Notes: generated by a model from the sequence alone, not told the origin. Numbered from the stretch's first letter, positions 3,378-15,798 are shown. The stretch is DNA of 64,000 nucleotides from an uncultured delta proteobacterium (GCA_963813455.1 CAWEZF010000002.1:185312-249311); one strand, 5' to 3'. A program made the numbers and translations.

Positions 3378-4936
3378 TTATGCGCCTAATACAATTTTGC
3401 TGACATCGTAGATTTTACCGCCTTTGATAACCATCCGTGGCTTTCGGCAGGCCTCGATTTTTTTCAGGGGATTTTCCCGTAAAACAATCAGATCGGCCAG
3501 TTTGCCGGTATCAACCGTGCCGATTTTATCGATCATGCCGATGATTTTGGCGTTGTTGAACGTGGCCGAGCGCAGAACTTCCGCGTTGGTAAAACCGATG
3601 CGCTTTAGCATTTCCATCTCTCTCCATAATGTTCCGTGATAAGTGAGCGGCACTCCCGCGTCCGTGCCGCAGCCGATGACGATCCCCGCGCTCTTTCATG
3701 GCCAGCAGATTTGCGGGGCCGGTCAGCATAATATCAAAATAAATCTCGGGATTAGCCATGTATTTTTTGTTTTTATACAGATTTGCACAGCCGTATTTTT
3801 TGTAGTTTGCCAGATGAGCAATGTTGCTTTTATGAATCGCCGGGTGTGTGTAATCATCTAGTTTGGAATTGATATAATTGCGGCGCGTGGCAATTTCCTG
3901 CTCGATAAAATCCGTGCGGAATATTTTGGGAAGTTCATCGTAGGCCTCCGGCGCCGCAATCATCTGCACAACACTCATCGTCGGGACGGTGGTGATTTTC
4001 TTTTTCGCCATTGTTTCTATTTCTTCCGGCGACAATAATTCGTTGATGGAATGTTCAATAGAATCAAGGCCGAACTGCAAAGCGCGGTCAAAACCGAATT
4101 TGGTATGAATATGCCCTGCCGTGGCCAGATTATTTTTTTGCGCGAAATCAAAAATTATTTTCAAATGCTCATCAGTGTAGGCGGGAATTTGCGGCCTTGC
4201 CGCATAAAACAGATATTTTATCCATCGTCAGTTTTATAAACGATGCGCCGCCTGCAGAGTTTTGCCGCATTTTTTCTTTTAGCTCTTCCGTGTCTTTGAA
4301 CCACATATTGGAATGGCCGGTATAAGCCATGACCAATCCGGCCAGAATACTCATTTCACCGGGGTCGAGGTCCGGATGGCCACCGTTAATATTGGTAAAA
4401 GAATTGCAGTAAATAACGCGTGGCCCGATAAGTTCTCCTTTCTGAATCTGCGCCAGATTATCGTGCAAGGTTTTCGGTAGCGCACCCATATCGCGGATGG
4501 TGGTAACTCCTTGTCTTATCTGCTGGATGTAATTTCTTTTCAGTTGATTGATCACCGCCCAAAGGACGCCGGCATTGAGCGCCGACGCGCCGGGCATGGT
4601 GATGTGGCAGTGCGCGTCAATCAGGCCGGGCAGAACATACTGATTTTTTAAATCAAGTACCACATCTCCTTCGCGCGTGGCAGGAGGCCGGGAAGAAACA
4701 GATCGTATAATGCCGTCGCGCACAGAGATGGTCTCACTGCTCAAAGTTAGACCCCGGACAACGTCGATAACTTCGGCATTGGTCAGATAAAGTGTTTTTC
4801 CCGCCGGCGCGCCGGTTGGCTGGTATTGGGGAATTGAGGTAAAGCCGGTTAGATTAGGTAAAGACAAAAGCGCGGCGGACAAAGCGGCATTTCGCAATAA
4901 TTCTCTGCGGGTAAGATTAAAAGTATTTTTATTCAT
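3378..4936 (-). pseudogene. Tat-signal amidohydrolase-family metallohydrolase, interrupted by two frameshifts
   Basis: Three consecutive ORFs (4172..4936, 3526..4164, 3378..3653) read as one protein. It starts with a twin-arginine leader (TRRELLRNAALSAALLS) and carries GLIDAHCHITMPG. It continues ..PQIPAYTDEHLKIIFDFAQKNNLATAGHIH.. and ..IVIGCGTDAGVPLTYHG..DLIVL. Shifts are near 4190-4195 and at the run 3684-3687; each is repaired by removing one base. Confidence 0.8.
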
Positions 4937-5051: not shown

Positions 5052-5666
5052 ATGCCCAAAACCCTTCGTGAAGTTTATAACGGTTTTGCCGCGACTTATG
5101 AACAAAACCGCGGGCTTTTTGATATGACCGGGGTGCTGGGTCATTTTTATGAGACGCTTTCTATTAAAAAAGGCGCTTTGCTTGATTTGGGCTGCGGAGC
5201 GGGTGAGCCTTTCGCGCGTTTTTTTACGGATAAGGGCTGGCAGGTAACCGGCGTGGATTTTTCCGAAAAGATGCTCACGATGGCGGCGAAATATGTTCCC
5301 GAGATGCAAACCGTTTGCAAGGATATGCGCGATGTCGATTTTGCACCCCAGAGTTTTGACGCGATCACAGCTGTTTACAGTCTGTTTCACGTGCCGAAGA
5401 TTGATCACCAGAGTTTATTTGAAAAAATGCATCGCTGGCTGAAACCGCGCGGCTGCCTGCTTTTCACCTACGCGACAAAAGAATACACTGGCGCTGATGA
5501 GTTTGAAGGCTATAAGGAATTTTTGGGAGAGCAGTTGTATTACAGCCACAAAAACACGGCGGACTTGTACAAGGATTTGATAAATACGGGTTTCAAAATC
5601 GTCTCCGCCGATTACCGCGCCATCGGCGGCGAAACATTTCTCTGGGTGACGGCAAAGCCGGATTAG
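5052..5666 (+). CDS. class I SAM-dependent methyltransferase
   Basis: ORF 4995..5666. The ATG at 5052 follows a GAAGGA Shine-Dalgarno. Motif I is LLDLGCGAGEP, with a Methyltransf_11/25-like layout. Confidence 0.8.
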   Translation: MPKTLREVYNGFAATYEQNRGLFDMTGVLGHFYETLSIKKGALLDLGCGAGEPFARFFTDKGWQVTGVDFSEKMLTMAAKYVPEMQTVCKDMRDVDFAPQSFDAITAVYSLFHVPKIDHQSLFEKMHRWLKPRGCLLFTYATKEYTGADEFEGYKEFLGEQLYYSHKNTADLYKDLINTGFKIVSADYRAIGGETFLWVTAKPD

Positions 5667-5669
5667 TTC

Positions 5670-5724
5670 AATAAACGACAAAATCAGCCGGAGCGCTGCG
5701 ATCGGCTTCAACGACTAGTCGGAT
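5670..5724 (-). repeat. attC-like / terminator-like imperfect palindrome, copy 1 (degenerate)
   Basis: Fills the whole gap between the convergent methyltransferase stop (5664-5666) and hicA stop (5725-5727). Shares the blocks taaacga, agccggagc, gcgatcggctt and aacga with the element at 6660-6723. AGCCG/CGGCT stem followed by TTTT on the minus strand. Confidence 0.45.
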
Positions 5725-5952
5725 TTATGATTCAAATTCACTTTTTGAAATGCCGGATTGTCGAATAATTGATTGTAGTGTTCCAATTCGCAGCTCAGAA
5801 TGATTAGGAACCGGTACGGTGATTGTTGTGTTGGAAAGCTTTTTTTGCATCACAACATGGCTGCCTCGTTGACGTACTTCCACAAATCCATGACGGGAAA
5901 GAATTTCGCAAACCTGCTTCCCGGAAAGAATGCGAAGTTTACCCAACGGCAA
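5725..5952 (-). CDS. hicA: HicA-family type II toxin (YcfA-like mRNA interferase)
   Basis: 75-aa ORF. LSGKQVCEILSRHGFVEVRQRGSHVVM.. carries the conserved GSH histidine context of HicA. Overlaps hicB by 14 nt. Confidence 0.8.
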   Translation of the reverse strand: MPLGKLRILSGKQVCEILSRHGFVEVRQRGSHVVMQKKLSNTTITVPVPNHSELRIGTLQSIIRQSGISKSEFES

Positions 5953-6160
5953 TCTCCACCTGGGTTACATATACTTCGTTGTGTAAACGTGTTTGAATTT
6001 CCGCGGGTGAGGCTGTTTCAAAGAAAAGCTCCAGCGCTTCCTGAAGGTTTATACGGGCTTCCTCAATAGTATTGCCCTGGCTGGCGATATCGAGTTCCGG
6101 ACAAAACGAAACATAGCCATCGCCTTCACGCTCGATAATCGCGGTAAGTTGTTTTTGCAT
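5939..6160 (-). CDS. hicB: HicB-family antitoxin (UPF0150-type, short form)
   Basis: ORF 5939..6202; likely start is ATG 6160 (MQKQLTAIIEREGDGYVSFCPELDIASQGNTIEEARINLQEALELF..). This is the typical HicB N-terminal fold sequence, and the gene is translationally coupled to hicA. Confidence 0.75.
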   Translation of the reverse strand: MQKQLTAIIEREGDGYVSFCPELDIASQGNTIEEARINLQEALELFFETASPAEIQTRLHNEVYVTQVEIAVG

Positions 6161-6247
6161 AGTATTTTTCCAAAGGTTCGATTTTATATTCAGGTCTCTC
6201 AAAGGCTTTATTGCTTTTGCCTTTTTATCACCACTCGTATTGATAAT

Positions 6248-6276
6248 CTTTTAACTCAGCTTGATTATGATGTCAA
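6248..6276 (-). promoter_or_regulatory. candidate sigma70-type promoter for hicBA
   Basis: Minus strand reads TTGACA (6276-6271), a 17-nt spacer, then TAAAAG (6253-6248), about 85 nt upstream of the hicB ATG. Confidence 0.3.
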
Positions 6277-6357
6277 TCTCTCATATTTTCACATTTCAGC
6301 TATCGGCTAGCGGTTGGTTGAACAATAAATAAAAGGGATCGCCTTTATTGACTTGCG

Positions 6358-6534
6358 GGCAGCGATGAATTTGACGGCTATAAAGAATTTTTGGGCGAGC
6401 AGTTGTACTACAGCCACAAAAACACGGCGGACTTGTATAAGGATTTGATAAATACGGGTTTCAAAATCGTCTCCGCCGATTACCGCGCCATCGGCGGCGA
6501 AACATTCCTCTGGGTGACGATGAAGCCTGATTAA
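6358..6534 (+). pseudogene. orphan 3'-terminal fragment (58 codons plus stop) of a methyltransferase paralogue/allele
   Basis: Aligns without gaps to 5490..5666, the 3' end of the intact methyltransferase. I counted 14 mismatches in 177 nt. Three are amino-acid replacements (A>S, E>D, A>M); the rest are synonymous or a stop-codon swap (TAG>TAA). There is no upstream coding continuation. Confidence 0.85.
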
Positions 6535-6659
6535 CTTAATTTGAAATACCTTGTTGGTTTACAAATGAACAGGAGATGAATAACCGGCAAAAAATGAATG
6601 TTTGTTTCACCTACAAACAAGCATAGTGAACAATTATTCTGATAATTTGCGTTTGAAGT

Positions 6660-6723
6660 GTTTAACGAAAAGCTAAGCCGGAGCCGCGAAGCGGCGATCG
6701 ACTTGAGCGATCTTGTTGTGTGT
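6660..6723 (-). repeat. attC-like imperfect palindrome, copy 2
   Basis: Minus strand: ACACAAC-AAGATC-GCT(C)AAGTCG-ATC-GCCGC-TTC-GCGGC-TC-CGGCTT-AGC-TTTTC-GTTAAAC. The distal end is a perfect GTTRRRY. The proximal end is one mismatch from RYYYAAC. Length is about 62 nt, with a bulged stem. It begins 15 nt after the DUF3800 stop. Confidence 0.5.
6713..6722. repeat. left arm of a perfect 10-bp inverted repeat bracketing the DUF3800 ORF
   Basis: TTGTTGTGTG at 6713-6722 is the exact reverse complement of CACACAACAA at 7581-7590. Confidence 0.7.
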
Positions 6724-6738
6724 TTTCTTGAGGCGCGC

Positions 6739-7560
6739 TCATAGTAAAACTATTGACTCCGGTGCATGGCGATGAAACAATTCTGCGCAGTCACACCTAC
6801 CTTTGCTTGGATAAATAACTGACCTTCCAATTGACCTTTCGCCAATAGACTTAACCCAGTTAGTTACTTTCTCGGTCTCCCCTTTGTAGCTGGGTGATGA
6901 AAATCCATCTTTTAACTCAGCATATTTTCGCAAGAAAAAAGACATAAAGTCAGCTACCTGGATCAGTGGTACTTCTTTTGAATCACCGAAGTAGGGTACA
7001 TCAATCATTTGATCAAGTGGCACTTTCTTTTTATCTTTACGGTAAAATGATTCGCTCCAAGCAGGTGGATTATTTATGAGATCATTAAATCTCATTTGTT
7101 CTCTTTCCTCATTGTCGAAGACAAAAATGGTATTACCTTTATTCTTGTCTTCGCCTTGATATTTTTTTTGCATTGAAAGAACGAGGTGAAAACCTAGAAA
7201 CCTCCACACCGTGTTTAGTTCATCTGGAATGATTCCTTCTTCAAGGCTTTTATAATAAGCGTGTTTAACAACACTTGAATACACAAAATGGTGCTTTCGA
7301 TCTTTTATCCACTCAAATATAAGACTAATTACTTCTGATCTCTTACGACCGTCCATTCCATACCAGACGCCATTACCTGCATAAAAATTTTTAGTATGAA
7401 GTTCACTGAGTTTCTTTCCAATAGCCGCAGACAAGTTATCTAGCAAATTACCCCAATGTTCTTTAGTAACATGCATTCTTTGCGAATCCACAACAACGCC
7501 AACTAAGACTGCAATTGGCTCATTACCTGTTCCGCTTTCGTCACAGTAACAGACTTTCAT
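6739..7560 (-). CDS. DUF3800-like protein, function unknown
   Basis: 273-aa ORF, visibly AT-richer than its neighbours. The N-terminal MKVCYCDESGTG (Y-x-DESG) and C-terminal PLIQVADFMSFFLRK (Q-x-AD) resemble the DUF3800 signature (recalled, not searched). Confidence 0.6.
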   Translation of the reverse strand: MKVCYCDESGTGNEPIAVLVGVVVDSQRMHVTKEHWGNLLDNLSAAIGKKLSELHTKNFYAGNGVWYGMDGRKRSEVISLIFEWIKDRKHHFVYSSVVKHAYYKSLEEGIIPDELNTVWRFLGFHLVLSMQKKYQGEDKNKGNTIFVFDNEEREQMRFNDLINNPPAWSESFYRKDKKKVPLDQMIDVPYFGDSKEVPLIQVADFMSFFLRKYAELKDGFSSPSYKGETEKVTNWVKSIGERSIGRSVIYPSKGRCDCAELFHRHAPESIVLL

Positions 7561-7580
7561 AATTTCCCTAATTCATTGAT

Positions 7581-7590
7581 CACACAACAA
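7581..7590. repeat. right arm of the 10-bp inverted repeat bracketing the DUF3800 ORF
   Basis: CACACAACAA, 20 nt upstream of the DUF3800 ATG (7560). On the minus strand it reads TTGTTGTGTG. Confidence 0.7.
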
Positions 7591-7857
7591 TTAATATACG
7601 AACTTGGTTTTTTCCGATGTTTTGAATATCTTACTTTATCTCAGGAAAAAAGCAAATTGGAAAATATCCATAAAAAACAGCTATCAACAAAAAGATGCCA
7701 CTTGGTATTTTGTGGTAATAAAGACCAAAAACCAAGTTGGTTATTTATGGCAAATTTGTCCAACTGCTTAATAATTACCGATTGAAAGATTGCAAAATAT
7801 TAGTGATCTGATTTCCATTGATAACAGGAAGTAATAAGTAAATACGGTGCCGCTACA

Positions 7858-9997
7858 TCATTTCTGCGTCACCACCCAGACGCCCTGCCAGTTTGCGGGC
7901 GGTTGGTCGATAAGCTCCGCGCATTTTTGGATGTAGGCTTTTGCTGCCGCGTCTTTTGCGGCAATTTCGGCAAAAAGAGTTTTTGCCTGTTCGAAAATCG
8001 CCCTGGTAAAATAATTTCAGGGCTTCGGCAAATTTATCTATAATATTTTGTTTTTCCGCGGTGATTTCTTCCGGCAACATTGGCTCATAAATAACGACAG
8101 GCTCTTTTCTTCCCACAACCTCAACACGCGAAATTTCCCGCGTAGGGAAAGCGCCCGCAATTTGCTCTTTGGTGGCCTGCGAGATCAAAGTATAAGTGCC
8201 GAACTGTTTGTTGATTCCTTCCAGGCGCGCGGCCAGATTTACCGCGTCGCCGATCATTGTGTAATCAAATCGCGACTTTGAACCCATATTGCCTACGACG
8301 GCCTGGCCGGTATTGATGCCGATGCGCATGTTCAGATTTTTGTTTAGCCTCTTATAAAATTCCGGCCGCATCTGCGCCAGTTTTGCCTGGCATTTGAGCG
8401 CGGCGCGCACACAGCGCGTGGCGTGATCCGGCTGTTCCAAAGGCGCGTTCCAGAAGGCGATAATCGCGTCGCCTTCGTATTTATCCACCGTGCCGCCTTC
8501 TTCATGGATAATATCCGTCATGGCGGAAAGATAAGTATTGAGCAGATTCGTGAGTTCTTCTGGATCGAGTCCTTCGGAAATACCGGTGAATCCTTCCAGA
8601 TCCGAGAAAAAAACAGAAAGCGGCTTTCTTTCACCGCCGAGCTTTAATCGCTCCGGATGCGCGATAAGTTCTTCGATAACGTCCGGGCTTAAGTATTGTT
8701 TAAAAGCATTTTTGATATAAGTTTTCTGCCGCCCTTCGGTTGTGTAATAAATCAGCCCCGCGCTCACCAGCGTTACCGCCACGGCTGTTTCCTGCACGAG
8801 CATCGGCAGCCAAAATCCCAGCCGGTAAGCGGCAAAACAAAGCGCCACCGGCAAAAGCAGAAAAACAACATAAACAAAAGCGCTGCGGGCAATACCTGCT
8901 GCCCAGGAAGAAAAAATTCCCGCCAAAAGCGCCAAAAGAAGAGTTAAGGCGATAGTGATGCCCAGGGGCGTAGATTTAATAAAATCTCCGGCCAGCAAAT
9001 TATCGAGCATGGTGGCAAAAACTTCCACGCCCGGATAAACGCCGGAAACAGGCGTAGGGCGCAGATCATACAAGCCGGGAGCGGAAAAACCGAAGAACAC
9101 AAACGCGTCTTTGAATTCCTCCGCATTGATAACGGGAGTTTCTCCTTCAGCCAGTAAAAGCGCGCTTTGGATGACGGCAGCGGCGGAATAGGACTTATGA
9201 GTGCCTGTCAAGCCGCGGAAATTTAAAATGGCCTGACCTTTATCATCGATGGGAATTGTTTTATCGCCGATGGTTAATTTACCCGGCGCAATGGACATTT
9301 TTGTTTGAGGATGAGAGGCAAGATAATTGGCCAGCCCCAGCGCGGGCATAACTTTACCGTCAAAAACTTCCAGAAGCGTTACACGGCGATAGACGCTATC
9401 GGCATCGGGGCGCATCTGCACGTTAGCCAGAATTTTTGCTGCCGCCGCTATTTTGGGAACAGGAAAAGAGGCGTGAGAGTAGCTTTGATAACCGGTTTTT
9501 GCTATCCATTCGTCCAGGCCGTTTATCTGAAAGGCGGGCGCGGGCGCGAAATCCGGCCAGCTTATTTGGCTGCCGGTATTTCTGCTTAAAAATACTGCGC
9601 TGACAACGGGCATCGCGCGCATGGCATCGGCCATTGCCTGATCATCTGATACGCCGTATTTGGAATGTTCTGTGTAGAGCACATCAAGAGCAATGGAGCG
9701 CGCGCCCGCGCGTTTGCAAAAATCAATCACCGCGCCGTAGACTTCGCGCGGCCAGGGCCAGGATAAGGCGTTTTCATCTTTACCCCAATCCAGCGAGCTT
9801 TGATCGAGCATGATGACACGGATTTTGTCTGTGGCATCCGATGGCTGGGCCATGGTGCTTACGCGCCAATCCCACGTTTTGGCTTCCCAGCGCGCGAGCC
9901 AGCCCGGCAGGAAAAAGGCCAGCGCGACGGCGGTACCGACTAGACCCGCCGCCATTCCCTGGAATAATTTATTTTCTTTTATTATTTTAAGAACCAT
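7858..9997 (-). CDS. CHASE2-sensor class III adenylate/guanylate cyclase (C-terminal tail frameshifted in this sequence)
   Basis: N-terminal TM, a large extracytoplasmic region and a TM cluster, then the cyclase domain (VFFSDLEGFTGISE, YEGDAIIAFWNAP, GINTGQAVVGNMGS..RFDYTMIGDAVNLAARLE). Removing one base near 7990-8000 restores ..GDFEQAKTLFAEIAAKDAAAKAYIQKCAELIDQPPANWQGVWVVTQK*, with TGA at 7858-7860. Confidence 0.85.
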
Positions 9998-13929: not shown

Positions 13930-15798
13930 TCAATGCGCCATTTCCCTTTTCTTCATCATAATCAGCACGGCTGATATCGCGCCTTCGGTAATGCCGGGGA
14001 TGCGCTCCATCTGGCCGATGGTGGCTGGCGCTATTCTGGCAAGTTTTGTTTTCAGTTCGTTGGAAAGACCGGGAATGGAACTATAATCAAAATCCGGCGG
14101 GATTTTCTTTTTTTCCTGCTCCTTCAGTTTTTTGACCGATTCGATCTGGCGCTTGATGTATCCTTCGTATTTGGTTTCTATTTCAATCTGCTTTTTGACA
14201 AAGGGATCAACTTGCTGCTGCCAGCCGGCAAATACGGCGAGATTGTCATAAGATAATTCATGTCTTTTCAAAAGGCCATAAAGCGTGGTGGCGTTATTTA
14301 AAGGCGGCGAATTTAGTTTTGCCAATTGCTCGTTTATTTCCGGCAAAGGTTTTACGCTGACTGTTTTCAGTTGCGAGATGCCTTTTTCTATTTTTTTTAT
14401 TTTTTCCTGCATTTCTGCATAATGCTCGCGCGCGACAAGCCCCAACTCGCAACCTTTGCCCAACAAACGAATAACAGCATTATCTTCCCGCAGAATCAAC
14501 CGGTATTCGGCGCGCGAGGTGAACATTCGATAAGGTTCATCCACGCCGCGCGTGACTAGATCATCAATCATCACGGCCATGTAGGCCTCGGAGCGATCCA
14601 GAATAAAAGGCGGGGCTTTTTGCACGGCGCGCGCGGCATTTATTCCCGCCCATAGGCCTTGCGCGGCGGCTTCTTCGTAGCCGGATGTTCCGTTAATCTG
14701 CCCGGCCAGATACAAACCGGCGATGAGTTTTGTCTCCAGAGTAAGAGTTAACTGATTAGGCTGAACGAAATCATATTCAATCGCGTAAGCGGGTCGCATA
14801 ATTTCCGCCTGCTCCAAACCTTTGACGCTGTGGACAATCTGATACTGCAATTCCAGCGGCAGGCAGTTGCCTAGGCCTTTGGCGTAAACTTCCTGCGTAT
14901 CGAGCCCTTCGTGCTCCAATACAACCGGATGGCTTTCGCGCTCGCCGAAACGCATGACTTTGTCTTCCAGCGAAGGACAGTAACGCGCGCCCACGCCTTG
15001 AATCACGCCGGAATAAAGAGGAGAGTGATGAATATTTTCCTGAATCAAGCGATGCGTCTGGACTGATGTGCTAGCAAAATAAGAAGGCAATCTTTCAGTG
15101 CGCAGCTGCTTGGTGGTAAAGGAAAAAGGCTGGGGATGCGGATCGCTGTCCTGGCGCTCCAAAACGGAAAAGTCAATGGACGAGGCCTTGAGCCGGGGCG
15201 GCGTTCCGGTTTTCATTCTGCCCATTTCAAAGCCAAGTTCTTTTAAATGATTGGCTAGCCCTACCGAAGCCAGCTCGCCGGCGCGGCCCGAAGGAGTCTG
15301 CGCTGTGCCGATGTGCACCAGTCCGTTTAAAAAAGTGCCGGTGGTGATGATAACTTTTTGTGCGCTATAGAAATAACCGCTCTGGTCAAGCACGCCTATG
15401 GCCGTGCCTTCCTCAATGACCAGTTTTTCCACCATCGCCTGGCGGATAAAAAGATTTTTCTGATTTTCCACAACGGATTTCATGGCCAGGCGGTAAAGCT
15501 GCTTATCACACTGCATTCGGGAGGACTGCACCGCCGGACCTTTGGAGGCGTTAAGCAGGCGGAAATGAGTTGCGGTTTTATCAGTGATTTTGCCCATCTC
15601 ACCGCCCAGCGCGTCGATTTCCTTGACCAGCTGCCCCTTGGCCAAACCCCCGATTGCCGGATTGCAGGACATGAGCGCAATGGAATCCAGATTGATGTTG
15701 AAAAGGAGTGTTTTGCACCCCATGCGCGCGGCCGCCAGCGCCGCCTCGCATCCCGCGTGCCCGCCGCCAACAACGATTATGTCGTAGTTATCCGCCAA
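13930..15798 (-). CDS. mnmG: tRNA uridine-5-carboxymethylaminomethyl(34) synthesis enzyme MnmG (GidA)
   Basis: 622-aa ORF with FAD motif DIIVVGGGHAGCEAA and full-length collinearity with MnmG. Confidence 0.95.
   Translation of the reverse strand: MADNYDIIVVGGGHAGCEAALAAARMGCKTLLFNINLDSIALMSCNPAIGGLAKGQLVKEIDALGGEMGKITDKTATHFRLLNASKGPAVQSSRMQCDKQLYRLAMKSVVENQKNLFIRQAMVEKLVIEEGTAIGVLDQSGYFYSAQKVIITTGTFLNGLVHIGTAQTPSGRAGELASVGLANHLKELGFEMGRMKTGTPPRLKASSIDFSVLERQDSDPHPQPFSFTTKQLRTERLPSYFASTSVQTHRLIQENIHHSPLYSGVIQGVGARYCPSLEDKVMRFGERESHPVVLEHEGLDTQEVYAKGLGNCLPLELQYQIVHSVKGLEQAEIMRPAYAIEYDFVQPNQLTLTLETKLIAGLYLAGQINGTSGYEEAAAQGLWAGINAARAVQKAPPFILDRSEAYMAVMIDDLVTRGVDEPYRMFTSRAEYRLILREDNAVIRLLGKGCELGLVAREHYAEMQEKIKKIEKGISQLKTVSVKPLPEINEQLAKLNSPPLNNATTLYGLLKRHELSYDNLAVFAGWQQQVDPFVKKQIEIETKYEGYIKRQIESVKKLKEQEKKKIPPDFDYSSIPGLSNELKTKLARIAPATIGQMERIPGITEGAISAVLIMMKKREMAH

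Follow-up and report, generated by a model that had tools for sequence, protein, structure and literature searches.

The window, a stretch of 64,000 nucleotides (64 kb) from an uncultured delta proteobacterium (GCA_963813455.1, CAWEZF010000002.1:185312-249311), contains an island at positions 5667-7852, which lies between a methyltransferase gene and the gene of an adenylate/guanylate cyclase with a CHASE2 domain. An earlier reading (the sequence-only reading) had suggested that this island consists of integron-type cassettes, with two unrelated modules, hicBA and a DUF3800 gene, that are each followed by an imperfect palindrome resembling an attC site. The host is of the Syntrophaceae/Smithellaceae type, and its CHASE2 cyclase protein is 92%, 89% and 85% identical to proteins of the metagenome-assembled genomes (MAGs) UBA7520, UBA4810 and others. 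The features of the locus are collected in Table 1.

The island was indeed AT-richer than its surroundings, as had been proposed, with a G+C fraction of 0.34-0.46 over positions 5600-7800 vs. 0.47-0.55 in the flanks. The dip was deepest at the DUF3800 open reading frame (ORF; 0.34-0.37) and small at hicAB (about 0.45). The two modules on the minus strand were recovered as far as HicA and DUF3800 are concerned, while the match of the HicB-like ORF was weak and remained below the cutoff. The cyclase gene is co-oriented with the cassettes, has orthologues in the 80 genomes of the related-genome set (L001-L080, 1.19 Mb), and is separated from the DUF3800 ORF by a non-coding stretch of 290 nt. An exact-protein lookup found the DUF3800 protein on record, and no record matched the methyltransferase, HicA, HicB or P0002.

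Table 1. Positions of genes, sites and remnants at the locus, numbered from the first nucleotide of the window.
Feature	Position	Strand	Remarks
Methyltransferase, class I, S-adenosylmethionine-dependent	5052-5666	+	Pfam Methyltransf_25/11; core gene that borders the array distally
Element 1, degenerate attC site, same family as element 2	5670-5724	-	R'' ATCCGAC (AAC changed to GAC), R' GTTTATT
hicA	5725-5952	-	PF07927, E = 3e-19, above cutoff; homologues start 2 codons later
hicB-like ORF	5939-6160	-	UPF0150-like, 18 bits, below the 27-bit Pfam cutoff
hicB upstream region	6161-6295	-	conserved with L201/L202
Junction filler	6296-6352	-	between hicB upstream region and methyltransferase remnant
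Methyltransferase 3'-end remnant with stop codon	6353-6540	+	homology to the L001 methyltransferase from 6356
Putative start of the next cassette (TTAAACAC...)	6541-6659	-	119-nt spacer; no cognate attC
Element 2, well-formed attC site	6660-6721	-	R'' ACACAAC 6721-6715, R' GTTAAAC 6666-6660, 48 nt between
DUF3800 cassette, 922 nt	6666-7587	-	first bases are the TT of the attI junction, last base is the G of R' of element 2
DUF3800 ORF	6739-7560	-	Pfam DUF3800, E = 8e-14
Predicted orphan attI region	7586-7852	-	cyclase stop to crossover between G (7588) and TT (7587-7586); core TTCGTATATTAATTGTT at 7602-7586
CHASE2 adenylate/guanylate cyclase	7853-9997	-	Pfam CHASE2 and Guanylate_cyc; core gene, 3' end adjoins the attI region

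The attC-like elements and their family

The top-strand cores of attC sites are R'' (RYYYAAC) and R' (GTTRRRY), and extrahelical bases and strand asymmetries have been described for these sites (Nivina 2016, PMC5027507). Compared with the two cores, element 2 has a perfect R' and an R'' with one mismatch, and its organization ACACAAC-N48-GTTAAAC on the minus strand was verified as it had been read before. The element begins 17 nt past the stop codon of DUF3800, and the distance of 15 nt given earlier had to be corrected. The proposed pairing of its interior was also confirmed, i.e., an inner stem GCT(C)AAGTCG/CGGCTTAGC with one bulged C (a G on the bottom strand) and a terminal hairpin GCCGC-TTC-GCGGC. 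Element 2 was found to be near-identical to a site at positions 14087-14141 of L005, a related genome, and to many metagenomic sites with the same loop insertion.

Element 1 fills the gap between the stop codons of the methyltransferase (5664-5666) and of hicA (5725-5727), as the sequence-only reading had noticed, and abuts the former. It was rightly called degenerate: neither ATCCGAC nor GTTTATT agrees with the attC core consensus, and the pairing is disrupted in the outer part of the inner stem, with mismatched pairs flagged in the model alignment. The blocks AGCCGGAGC and GCGATCGRCTT, which had been recognized as common to the two elements, have exactly two occurrences in 64 kb, at 5686-5708 and 6676-6704. 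A covariance model (R1), which was built from the attC family itself and which had element 2 in its training set, but not element 1, located both elements on the minus strand, about 990 nt apart, at 5670-5724 and 6660-6720, with scores of 53 bits for element 2 and 46.5 bits (E = 2.6e-11) for element 1. With all filters off R1 did not find a third element in the 64 kb, the next best score being 12 bits. Scanning 5400-8000 against Rfam with a permissive E-value returned chance matches only and no matching family.

The family was collected by searching metagenome contigs with a degenerate pattern of the element core that has 22 specified bases. The pattern was present on at least 120 contigs with at least 152 copies. 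Among the matches listed, 149 flanks were distinct, no contig had copies on both strands, the spacings ranged from 461 to 3844 nt, and the AAC of R'' was present in 146 of 152 members and the GTT of R' in all of them. Homologues of IntI1 with 45-54% identity were encoded on the same contigs as arrays of the family, and IntI homologues were located on L087, L106, L117, L172, L161, L177, L180 and L204. On L087 and L106 the intI gene is located upstream of the array and is divergently transcribed, and the L087 protein reached 422 bits with the integron integrase model TIGR02249 (cutoff 265). An IntI that is 85% identical to that of L087 is annotated on L204, a contig of a Smithellaceae MAG. Linkage to an integrase was found for the family and not for the window itself. 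The intI gene of L106 contains an in-frame stop and a duplicated C-terminal segment.

Cassettes recombine between the G and the TT of the R' core, and therefore the bases past GTT belong to the next cassette and should pair with the RYYY head of its attC. In 19 of 33 consecutive pairs among the matches listed the R' tail of one site was complementary in 4/4 positions to the R'' head of the following site, whereas 2000 trials with permuted pairings gave 1.2 such pairs on average and never more than 7. The complementarity of R' and R'' of the same site was at chance level. The failures of the rule occurred mostly at spacings of more than 1.2 kb, where probably an unrecognised attC lies between the two sites.

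The stem was analyzed with an alignment of 95 distinct family sites, using the fact that the 5' arm was unconstrained by the search pattern. In the inner stem 90% of the cells were paired with the 3' arm, vs. 15-44% when the partner columns were slid, and 42 double-sided changes were counted vs. 5.9 in shuffles, none of 500 shuffles being as high. All 95 sites have one to two additional bases in the R''-L'' arm, and in 80 of them the bottom strand carries a T or a G as the bulged base. Of the two strands, the bottom one was the more stable in 91 of 95 sites (p ~1e-15), for example with -26 vs. -18 kcal/mol for site L005_c. The length of the loop varies by insertions of 1 to 9 nt, including GCCGC-TTC-GCGGC of element 2. 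Taken together, the linkage to IntI, the junction rule, the covariation of the stem and the attC-type asymmetries, as independent lines of evidence, showed that the predicted sites of this family are attC sites, and the attC-like character that had been ascribed to both elements was borne out.

On the top (coding) strand the family members form a G+C-rich hairpin followed by a T-run (...CGGCTGATTTTTTCGTT; minus strand of the window, 6660-6680 and 5670-5690). Therefore, the attC sites may also act as intrinsic terminators between cassettes. An nhmmer profile from five seeds recovered the seeds only, a generic hairpin scan (xxxxAAC...GTTxxxx with a folding filter) was abandoned due to many false positives and missed real sites, and an automated chain-walker, which placed R'' right and R' wrong, was used as a check only.

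The first cassette, the attI region and the missing integrase

The 5' boundary of the DUF3800 cassette was revealed by the sequence GTTGTGTG at 7588-7581 (minus strand), which precedes the DUF3800 ATG by 21 nt. It pairs over 8 nt with the R'' head CACACAAC of element 2 and is present only twice in 64 kb, at this position and as the complement of R'' of element 2. Therefore, DUF3800 represents an intact cassette of 922 nt (6666-7587) whose boundaries are shown by this pairing, the ATG being 26 nt inside its 5' end. A DUF3800 homologue was detected neither in the related loci nor on the integron contigs.

Upstream of this junction, the window shares 260 nt of conserved sequence with L002 and L005, from the cyclase stop codon to G7588, and the conservation stops exactly at GTT. 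The 5' junction of the DUF3800 cassette thus coincides with the last base triplet of a conserved site, TTCGTATATTAATT-GTT (also written TATATTAATT-GTT). The complete integrons on L087 and L204 have the identical 17-mer TTCGTATATTAATTGTT at their junction next to intI. The core TATATT(A/G)ATT-GTT together with an extended consensus (...GTAAGATT.C...ATCGGAAAA.ACC...) was present at 20 loci, and the sequence past GTT was different in each of them. The tail of the site pairs in 4/4 positions with the R'' head of the first family attC within 1 kb in 8 of 9 cases, including the window, compared with 0.39 expected for random pairing (maximum 4 in 5000 draws), and in 0 of 8 cases beyond 1 kb. The region does not form a significant hairpin (fold z of +0.1 and -1.3). 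Hence it lies at the junction of platform and first cassette, is conserved to the left and variable to the right, is adjacent to intI in complete integrons and is devoid of a hairpin, and by these features region 7586-7852 was shown to have the sequence and the surroundings of an attI site. The junction between 7588 and 7587, the attI site itself and a 177-nt methyltransferase repeat (see below) had all escaped the sequence-only reading.

The same kind of start region was found in different contexts. In L161 a window-type start region lies beside an internally deleted intI (3757-4545), of which residues 7-43 and 258-334 alone were detectable and which is located about 470 nt upstream of the attI. 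This looks like an integron caught losing its integrase. In L185 (3730-6545) and L200 (3286-5510) the attI core heads a cassette array just downstream of a co-oriented ordinary gene, i.e., an acylase-like ORF of 900 aa and an ORF of 490 aa, respectively, and no intI was found within 5-10 kb. The window, L002 and L005 likewise have an ordinary co-oriented gene upstream of the attI and no intI. Orphan attI sites recur at unrelated chromosomal loci.

The comparison with relatives revealed that the locus is variable. The cargo between the cyclase and the methyltransferase genes differs completely among close relatives, and thus the possibility of an invariant, syntenic locus did not hold. Nor is the element dispersed: in addition to the two copies in 64 kb, R1 yielded four hits in the 1.19 Mb of the related genomes, which were all downstream of the cyclase, i.e., in an array of L005, at one site of L037 and, marginally, in L001. 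In L005, a more distant relative (72% cyclase identity), the cyclase gene is followed by co-oriented ORFs for a lipoprotein-like protein, a GNAT acetyltransferase and a YdeI-like protein. Each of them is followed by an imperfect palindrome of 55-97 nt, bounded by ...ATAAC and GTTAT..., and one of the palindromes is almost identical to element 2. At this same locus L005 has a perfect chain from the attI through four cassettes. The hit in L037 (8422-8479, 27.7 bits) is a family attC about 2.5 kb downstream of the cyclase orthologue of this distant relative (57% identity), and therefore the position downstream of the cyclase may be an old cassette site.

Searches by tblastn with IntI1 and with the IntI of L087 did not reveal an intI gene in the 64-kb window, in agreement with the sequence-only reading, or in L001-L080. 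An IntI1 match in L036 was spurious and lay in a GC-rich dehydrogenase region. Clusters of attC sites lacking an integrase (CALINs) are defined by the absence of intI nearby, within 10 kb (Cury 2016, PMC4889954). The window contains at least two attC sites on the same strand within 4 kb, and neither an intI gene nor a pseudogene was found in it. The earlier view that the island is at best a CALIN-type array was thus correct with regard to an attC cluster without intI, and it fell short in that the array is more than a bare CALIN and starts at an attI; the lack of intI in 64 kb and the presence of this site therefore indicate a CALIN that has retained an orphan attI. This status hinges on the degenerate element 1, and if that element is rejected, the locus would comprise an attI and one cassette.

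The distal end of the array

Beyond element 2 the array is less regular. The stretch that starts the next cassette ends in TGTAAACCAACAA (6563-6551), and the same 13-mer is present at 15696-15708 of L003, in the 3' flank of an intact methyltransferase gene. The stretch 6541-6659 has no significant fold, and no GTGTTTAAC was found on the minus strand downstream of element 2.

It is followed by a remnant of the methyltransferase 3' end, which is part of a direct repeat of 177 nt: 5496-5672 and 6364-6540 are 92% identical and bracket element 1 and hicAB. The source copy comprises the last 171 nt of the methyltransferase gene and 6 nt of its flank. A search with blastn-short did not find a cyclase 3' remnant in 6161-6352 of the window, and a resemblance at 6296-6331 was seen by eye only. 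The hicBA module, a putative toxin-antitoxin pair, is oriented with the array. The view that both modules are cassettes with an attC of their own was upheld for DUF3800; hicBA with element 1 does not make a clean cassette, as it has no cognate 5' junction and lies inside the duplication of the methyltransferase end.

Homologues of HicA with 95-99% identity occur at the same locus in L201, L202 and L203, and window positions 6295-4900 are collinear with 1267-2671 of L202 (89% identity). In these three genomes hicBA is preceded by an antisense methyltransferase 3' remnant of 60 nt, ending ...GGTAATCGGC; the remnant of the window has 177-182 nt. Behind hicBA there is a site of the element 1 type, which scored 34.9 bits and has the R'' ATATAAC in L202/L203, and which scored 12 bits in L201. 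Past that site, L202 has the intact methyltransferase gene, and L201 has a remnant of about 100 nt that is fused to a cyclase 3' remnant of 42 nt (6290-6470). Likewise, a methyltransferase remnant in L003 (14236-14415) is directly followed by a cyclase remnant of 57 nt. Methyltransferase remnants of 109-116 nt are present in L001 and L003 with wholly different cargo. The junction of methyltransferase and cyclase remnants is what is expected from a tandem duplication, or from a circular intermediate, of the whole interval. The remnants in L001, L003, L201-L203 and the window therefore indicate that the end of the array was repeatedly remodelled, duplicating the ends of both core genes. Candidate routes to the duplication are a tandem duplication of the whole interval with subsequent turnover of cassettes, a Campbell-type homologous integration of a circle bearing the remnant junction, and an imprecise integrase-mediated excision, which is known from cassettes inserted in genomes (Loot et al., bioRxiv 10.1101/2022.09.11.507474).

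Some further observations concern the flanking genes and a short repeat. In L001, L003 and L202 the methyltransferase orthologues adjoin the same amidohydrolase as in the window. It is a single gene of 518 aa in each of them and consists of three overlapping or adjacent ORFs in the window (3378-4936, minus strand; 4172-4936, 3526-4164 and 3378-3653), due to either a pseudogene or indel errors of the assembly. The long cyclase ORF of the window ends at 7853, the conserved frame of its relatives (...WVVTQK*) ends at the TGA at 7860-7858, and the last ~39 residues of the window ORF are read in another frame than in L001 and L003 (window 7853-7990), suggesting that a frameshift or a sequencing indel is located close to the 3' end. 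The exact 15-mer ATCTTTTAACTCAGC is present at 6246-6260 upstream of hicB and at 6907-6921 within the DUF3800 ORF, and 13 of its bases are also found in a leucine-rich repeat (LRR) cargo gene of L003 (15148-15160).

The island as probable remains of a chromosomal integron

Taken together, it is very probable that the island 5667-7852 represents the remains of a sedentary chromosomal integron of the Syntrophaceae/Smithellaceae, with an attI and cassettes and without a nearby intI, and hence a CALIN. The array would start, on the minus strand, at the orphan attI just downstream of the cyclase gene, with the crossover between G7588 and T7587. DUF3800 and element 2 constitute the first cassette, in the layout expected of an attI x attC insertion, and its first bases TTGTGTG are complementary to the R'' head CACACAA of its own attC. 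For this insertion an integron integrase would have acted on the folded bottom strand of the attC, and this enzyme would be encoded, now or formerly, by another part of the genome or by a mobile element. The array would continue with an older and decaying part, made up of a cassette start without attC, the methyltransferase 3' fragment and a hicBA module that would be self-expressed and whose attC (element 1) has lost its AAC core and abuts the intact methyltransferase gene. We infer the action of the integrase in trans and the order of events.

Several results weigh against this interpretation. A cognate 5' junction of element 1/hicBA was not found when the junction rule was applied, element 1 is devoid of the AAC triplet, and a cassette begins after element 2 that has no attC, so that only one cassette of the window is demonstrably intact. 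Folded alone, neither element 2 nor element 1 was better than shuffled sequence (z of +0.2 to -1.8), and the bottom strand of element 2 was not more stable than the top strand (-8.9 vs. -9.2 kcal/mol); it is the covariation within the family, and not the folding energy, that supports the structure of the elements. The methyltransferase duplication is not a product of site-specific cassette recombination. The predicted attI was assigned from sequence and junction logic. In addition, no integrase is known for this genome.

As an alternative, an integrase gene might never have been present at this locus, and an integrase encoded elsewhere might have inserted the cassettes one by one at an attG-type hotspot behind the cyclase gene, so that the start region would not be a former attI. 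Insertion of cassettes by integron integrases at genomic 5'-GWT-3' sites is highly frequent and may be a source of small CALINs and SALINs (bioRxiv 10.1101/2022.09.11.507474); the sites behind ordinary genes in L185 and L200, without intI, would be in accordance with this. However, the complete integrons L087 and L204 have the same 17-nt core at their intI-proximal junction, and in L161 a window-type start region adjoins an internally deleted intI. Therefore, the region is regarded as the attI of a platform that has lost its integrase, and insertion at a hotspot is considered unlikely.

The similarity of the two elements could also have arisen as a by-product when the methyltransferase 3' end was segmentally duplicated along with its native downstream terminator. 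Both elements lie downstream of a methyltransferase stop codon (of the intact gene or of the remnant), the 177-nt duplication is real, and the flank of the remnant in L001 also bears a related element. However, the homology of the methyltransferase copies ends 6 nt past the stop codon and element 2 is another 119 nt away, element 2 resembles the L005 site at 14087-14141 and many metagenomic sites more closely than it resembles element 1, and the family occurs on at least 120 contigs without the methyltransferase, so that this explanation is very improbable. The idea of a duplicated native terminator was rejected once the L005 array and the metagenome family had been seen. Equally improbable is a repetitive extragenic palindromic (REP)-like or bidirectional intrinsic-terminator family behind two convergent gene pairs, even though each family member has a top-strand hairpin with a T-run, both window copies lie between convergent stop codons, and a simple terminator scan detects a portion of element 2 (attC sites may well terminate transcription, too), since the scarcity of R1 hits in 64 kb and in 1.19 Mb of related genomes, with near absence outside of arrays, excludes a dispersed family, and since copies that are one-stranded and cassette-spaced on each contig (among the matches listed), the junction complementarity and the linkage to integrase and attI are unexpected of REPs or terminators.

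The reading as remains of a chromosomal integron can tentatively be extended by a linked pair of proposals, for which we see a limited but real chance: that the orphan attI still captures cassettes via an integrase encoded elsewhere, and that the hicBA unit arose by an imprecise integrase-mediated excision (attC x secondary site), which packaged chromosomal DNA. The first cassettes of the window, L002 and L005 are not the same, and where testable, every one of them has a perfect attI x attC junction. The three loci share the same integrase-less layout of cyclase and attI, and therefore the integrase was probably lost before their divergence. The hicBA unit carries a 3' piece of the methyltransferase gene wherever it was found, and therefore it may exemplify imprecise excision.

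The locus can be compared with several known systems. The superintegron of Vibrio with its VCR repeats is reportedly a sedentary chromosomal integron, and the integrons of Xanthomonas are said to reside at a fixed locus with a decayed intI. The island resembles them in its homogeneous, lineage-specific attC sites, in its fixed position with arrays that differ between relatives, in putative toxin-antitoxin cassettes with promoters of their own, and in the decay of the integrase as seen in L161. It is unlike them in that the array is very short, intI is gone rather than a pseudogene, and the host is an uncultured anaerobic syntroph (Thermodesulfobacteriota). The hicBA module agrees with the HicAB type II toxin-antitoxin cassettes of integron arrays in being a two-gene module that is oriented with the array and has an attC-type site directly 3', but this attC is degenerate, the 5' boundary is gone, and a fragment of the neighbouring core gene is present in every genome in which the module was found. 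With CALINs (Cury 2016, PMC4889954) the island shares at least two attC on one strand within 4 kb, no intI nearby, a chromosomal position and cargo of mostly unknown function; it differs in a recognisable attI, which IntegronFinder normally cannot detect, in that one of the two attC is degenerate, and in the fragments of core genes inside of the array. Similar to attG insertions and SALINs (bioRxiv 10.1101/2022.09.11.507474), the cassettes are located far from an integrase and beside ordinary chromosomal genes, and off-site excision, which can carry or delete chromosomal DNA, is a possible origin of the methyltransferase fragment next to hicBA. In contrast to these, the insertion point has the sequence of an attI of its class, beyond the minimal GWT, as judged from the nucleotides of the site. 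A limited literature search did not find a report on integrons for Syntrophaceae or Smithella. It is well supported that the locus is a known kind of element, an ordinary CALIN, in a lineage for which no prior report was found.

Integrons are mainly known as vehicles of antibiotic resistance, but the majority of arrays reside in environmental bacteria and are poorly described. The results place a large, homogeneous attC family together with its predicted attI and its IntI in anaerobic syntrophs and their habitats, i.e., digesters, wetlands and sediments. An attI of a chromosomal class could be defined from sequence, which is rarely possible, arrays headed by such an attI and devoid of intI are present at several unrelated chromosomal positions, and fragments of the flanking core genes are embedded in the array. 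If it is true that orphan attI sites are used in trans, arrays without an integrase would be active parts of an integron network and not dead remnants. If it is true that an imprecise excision has captured the methyltransferase fragment, this would bear on the origin of cassettes and would be a step towards understanding how new ones form.

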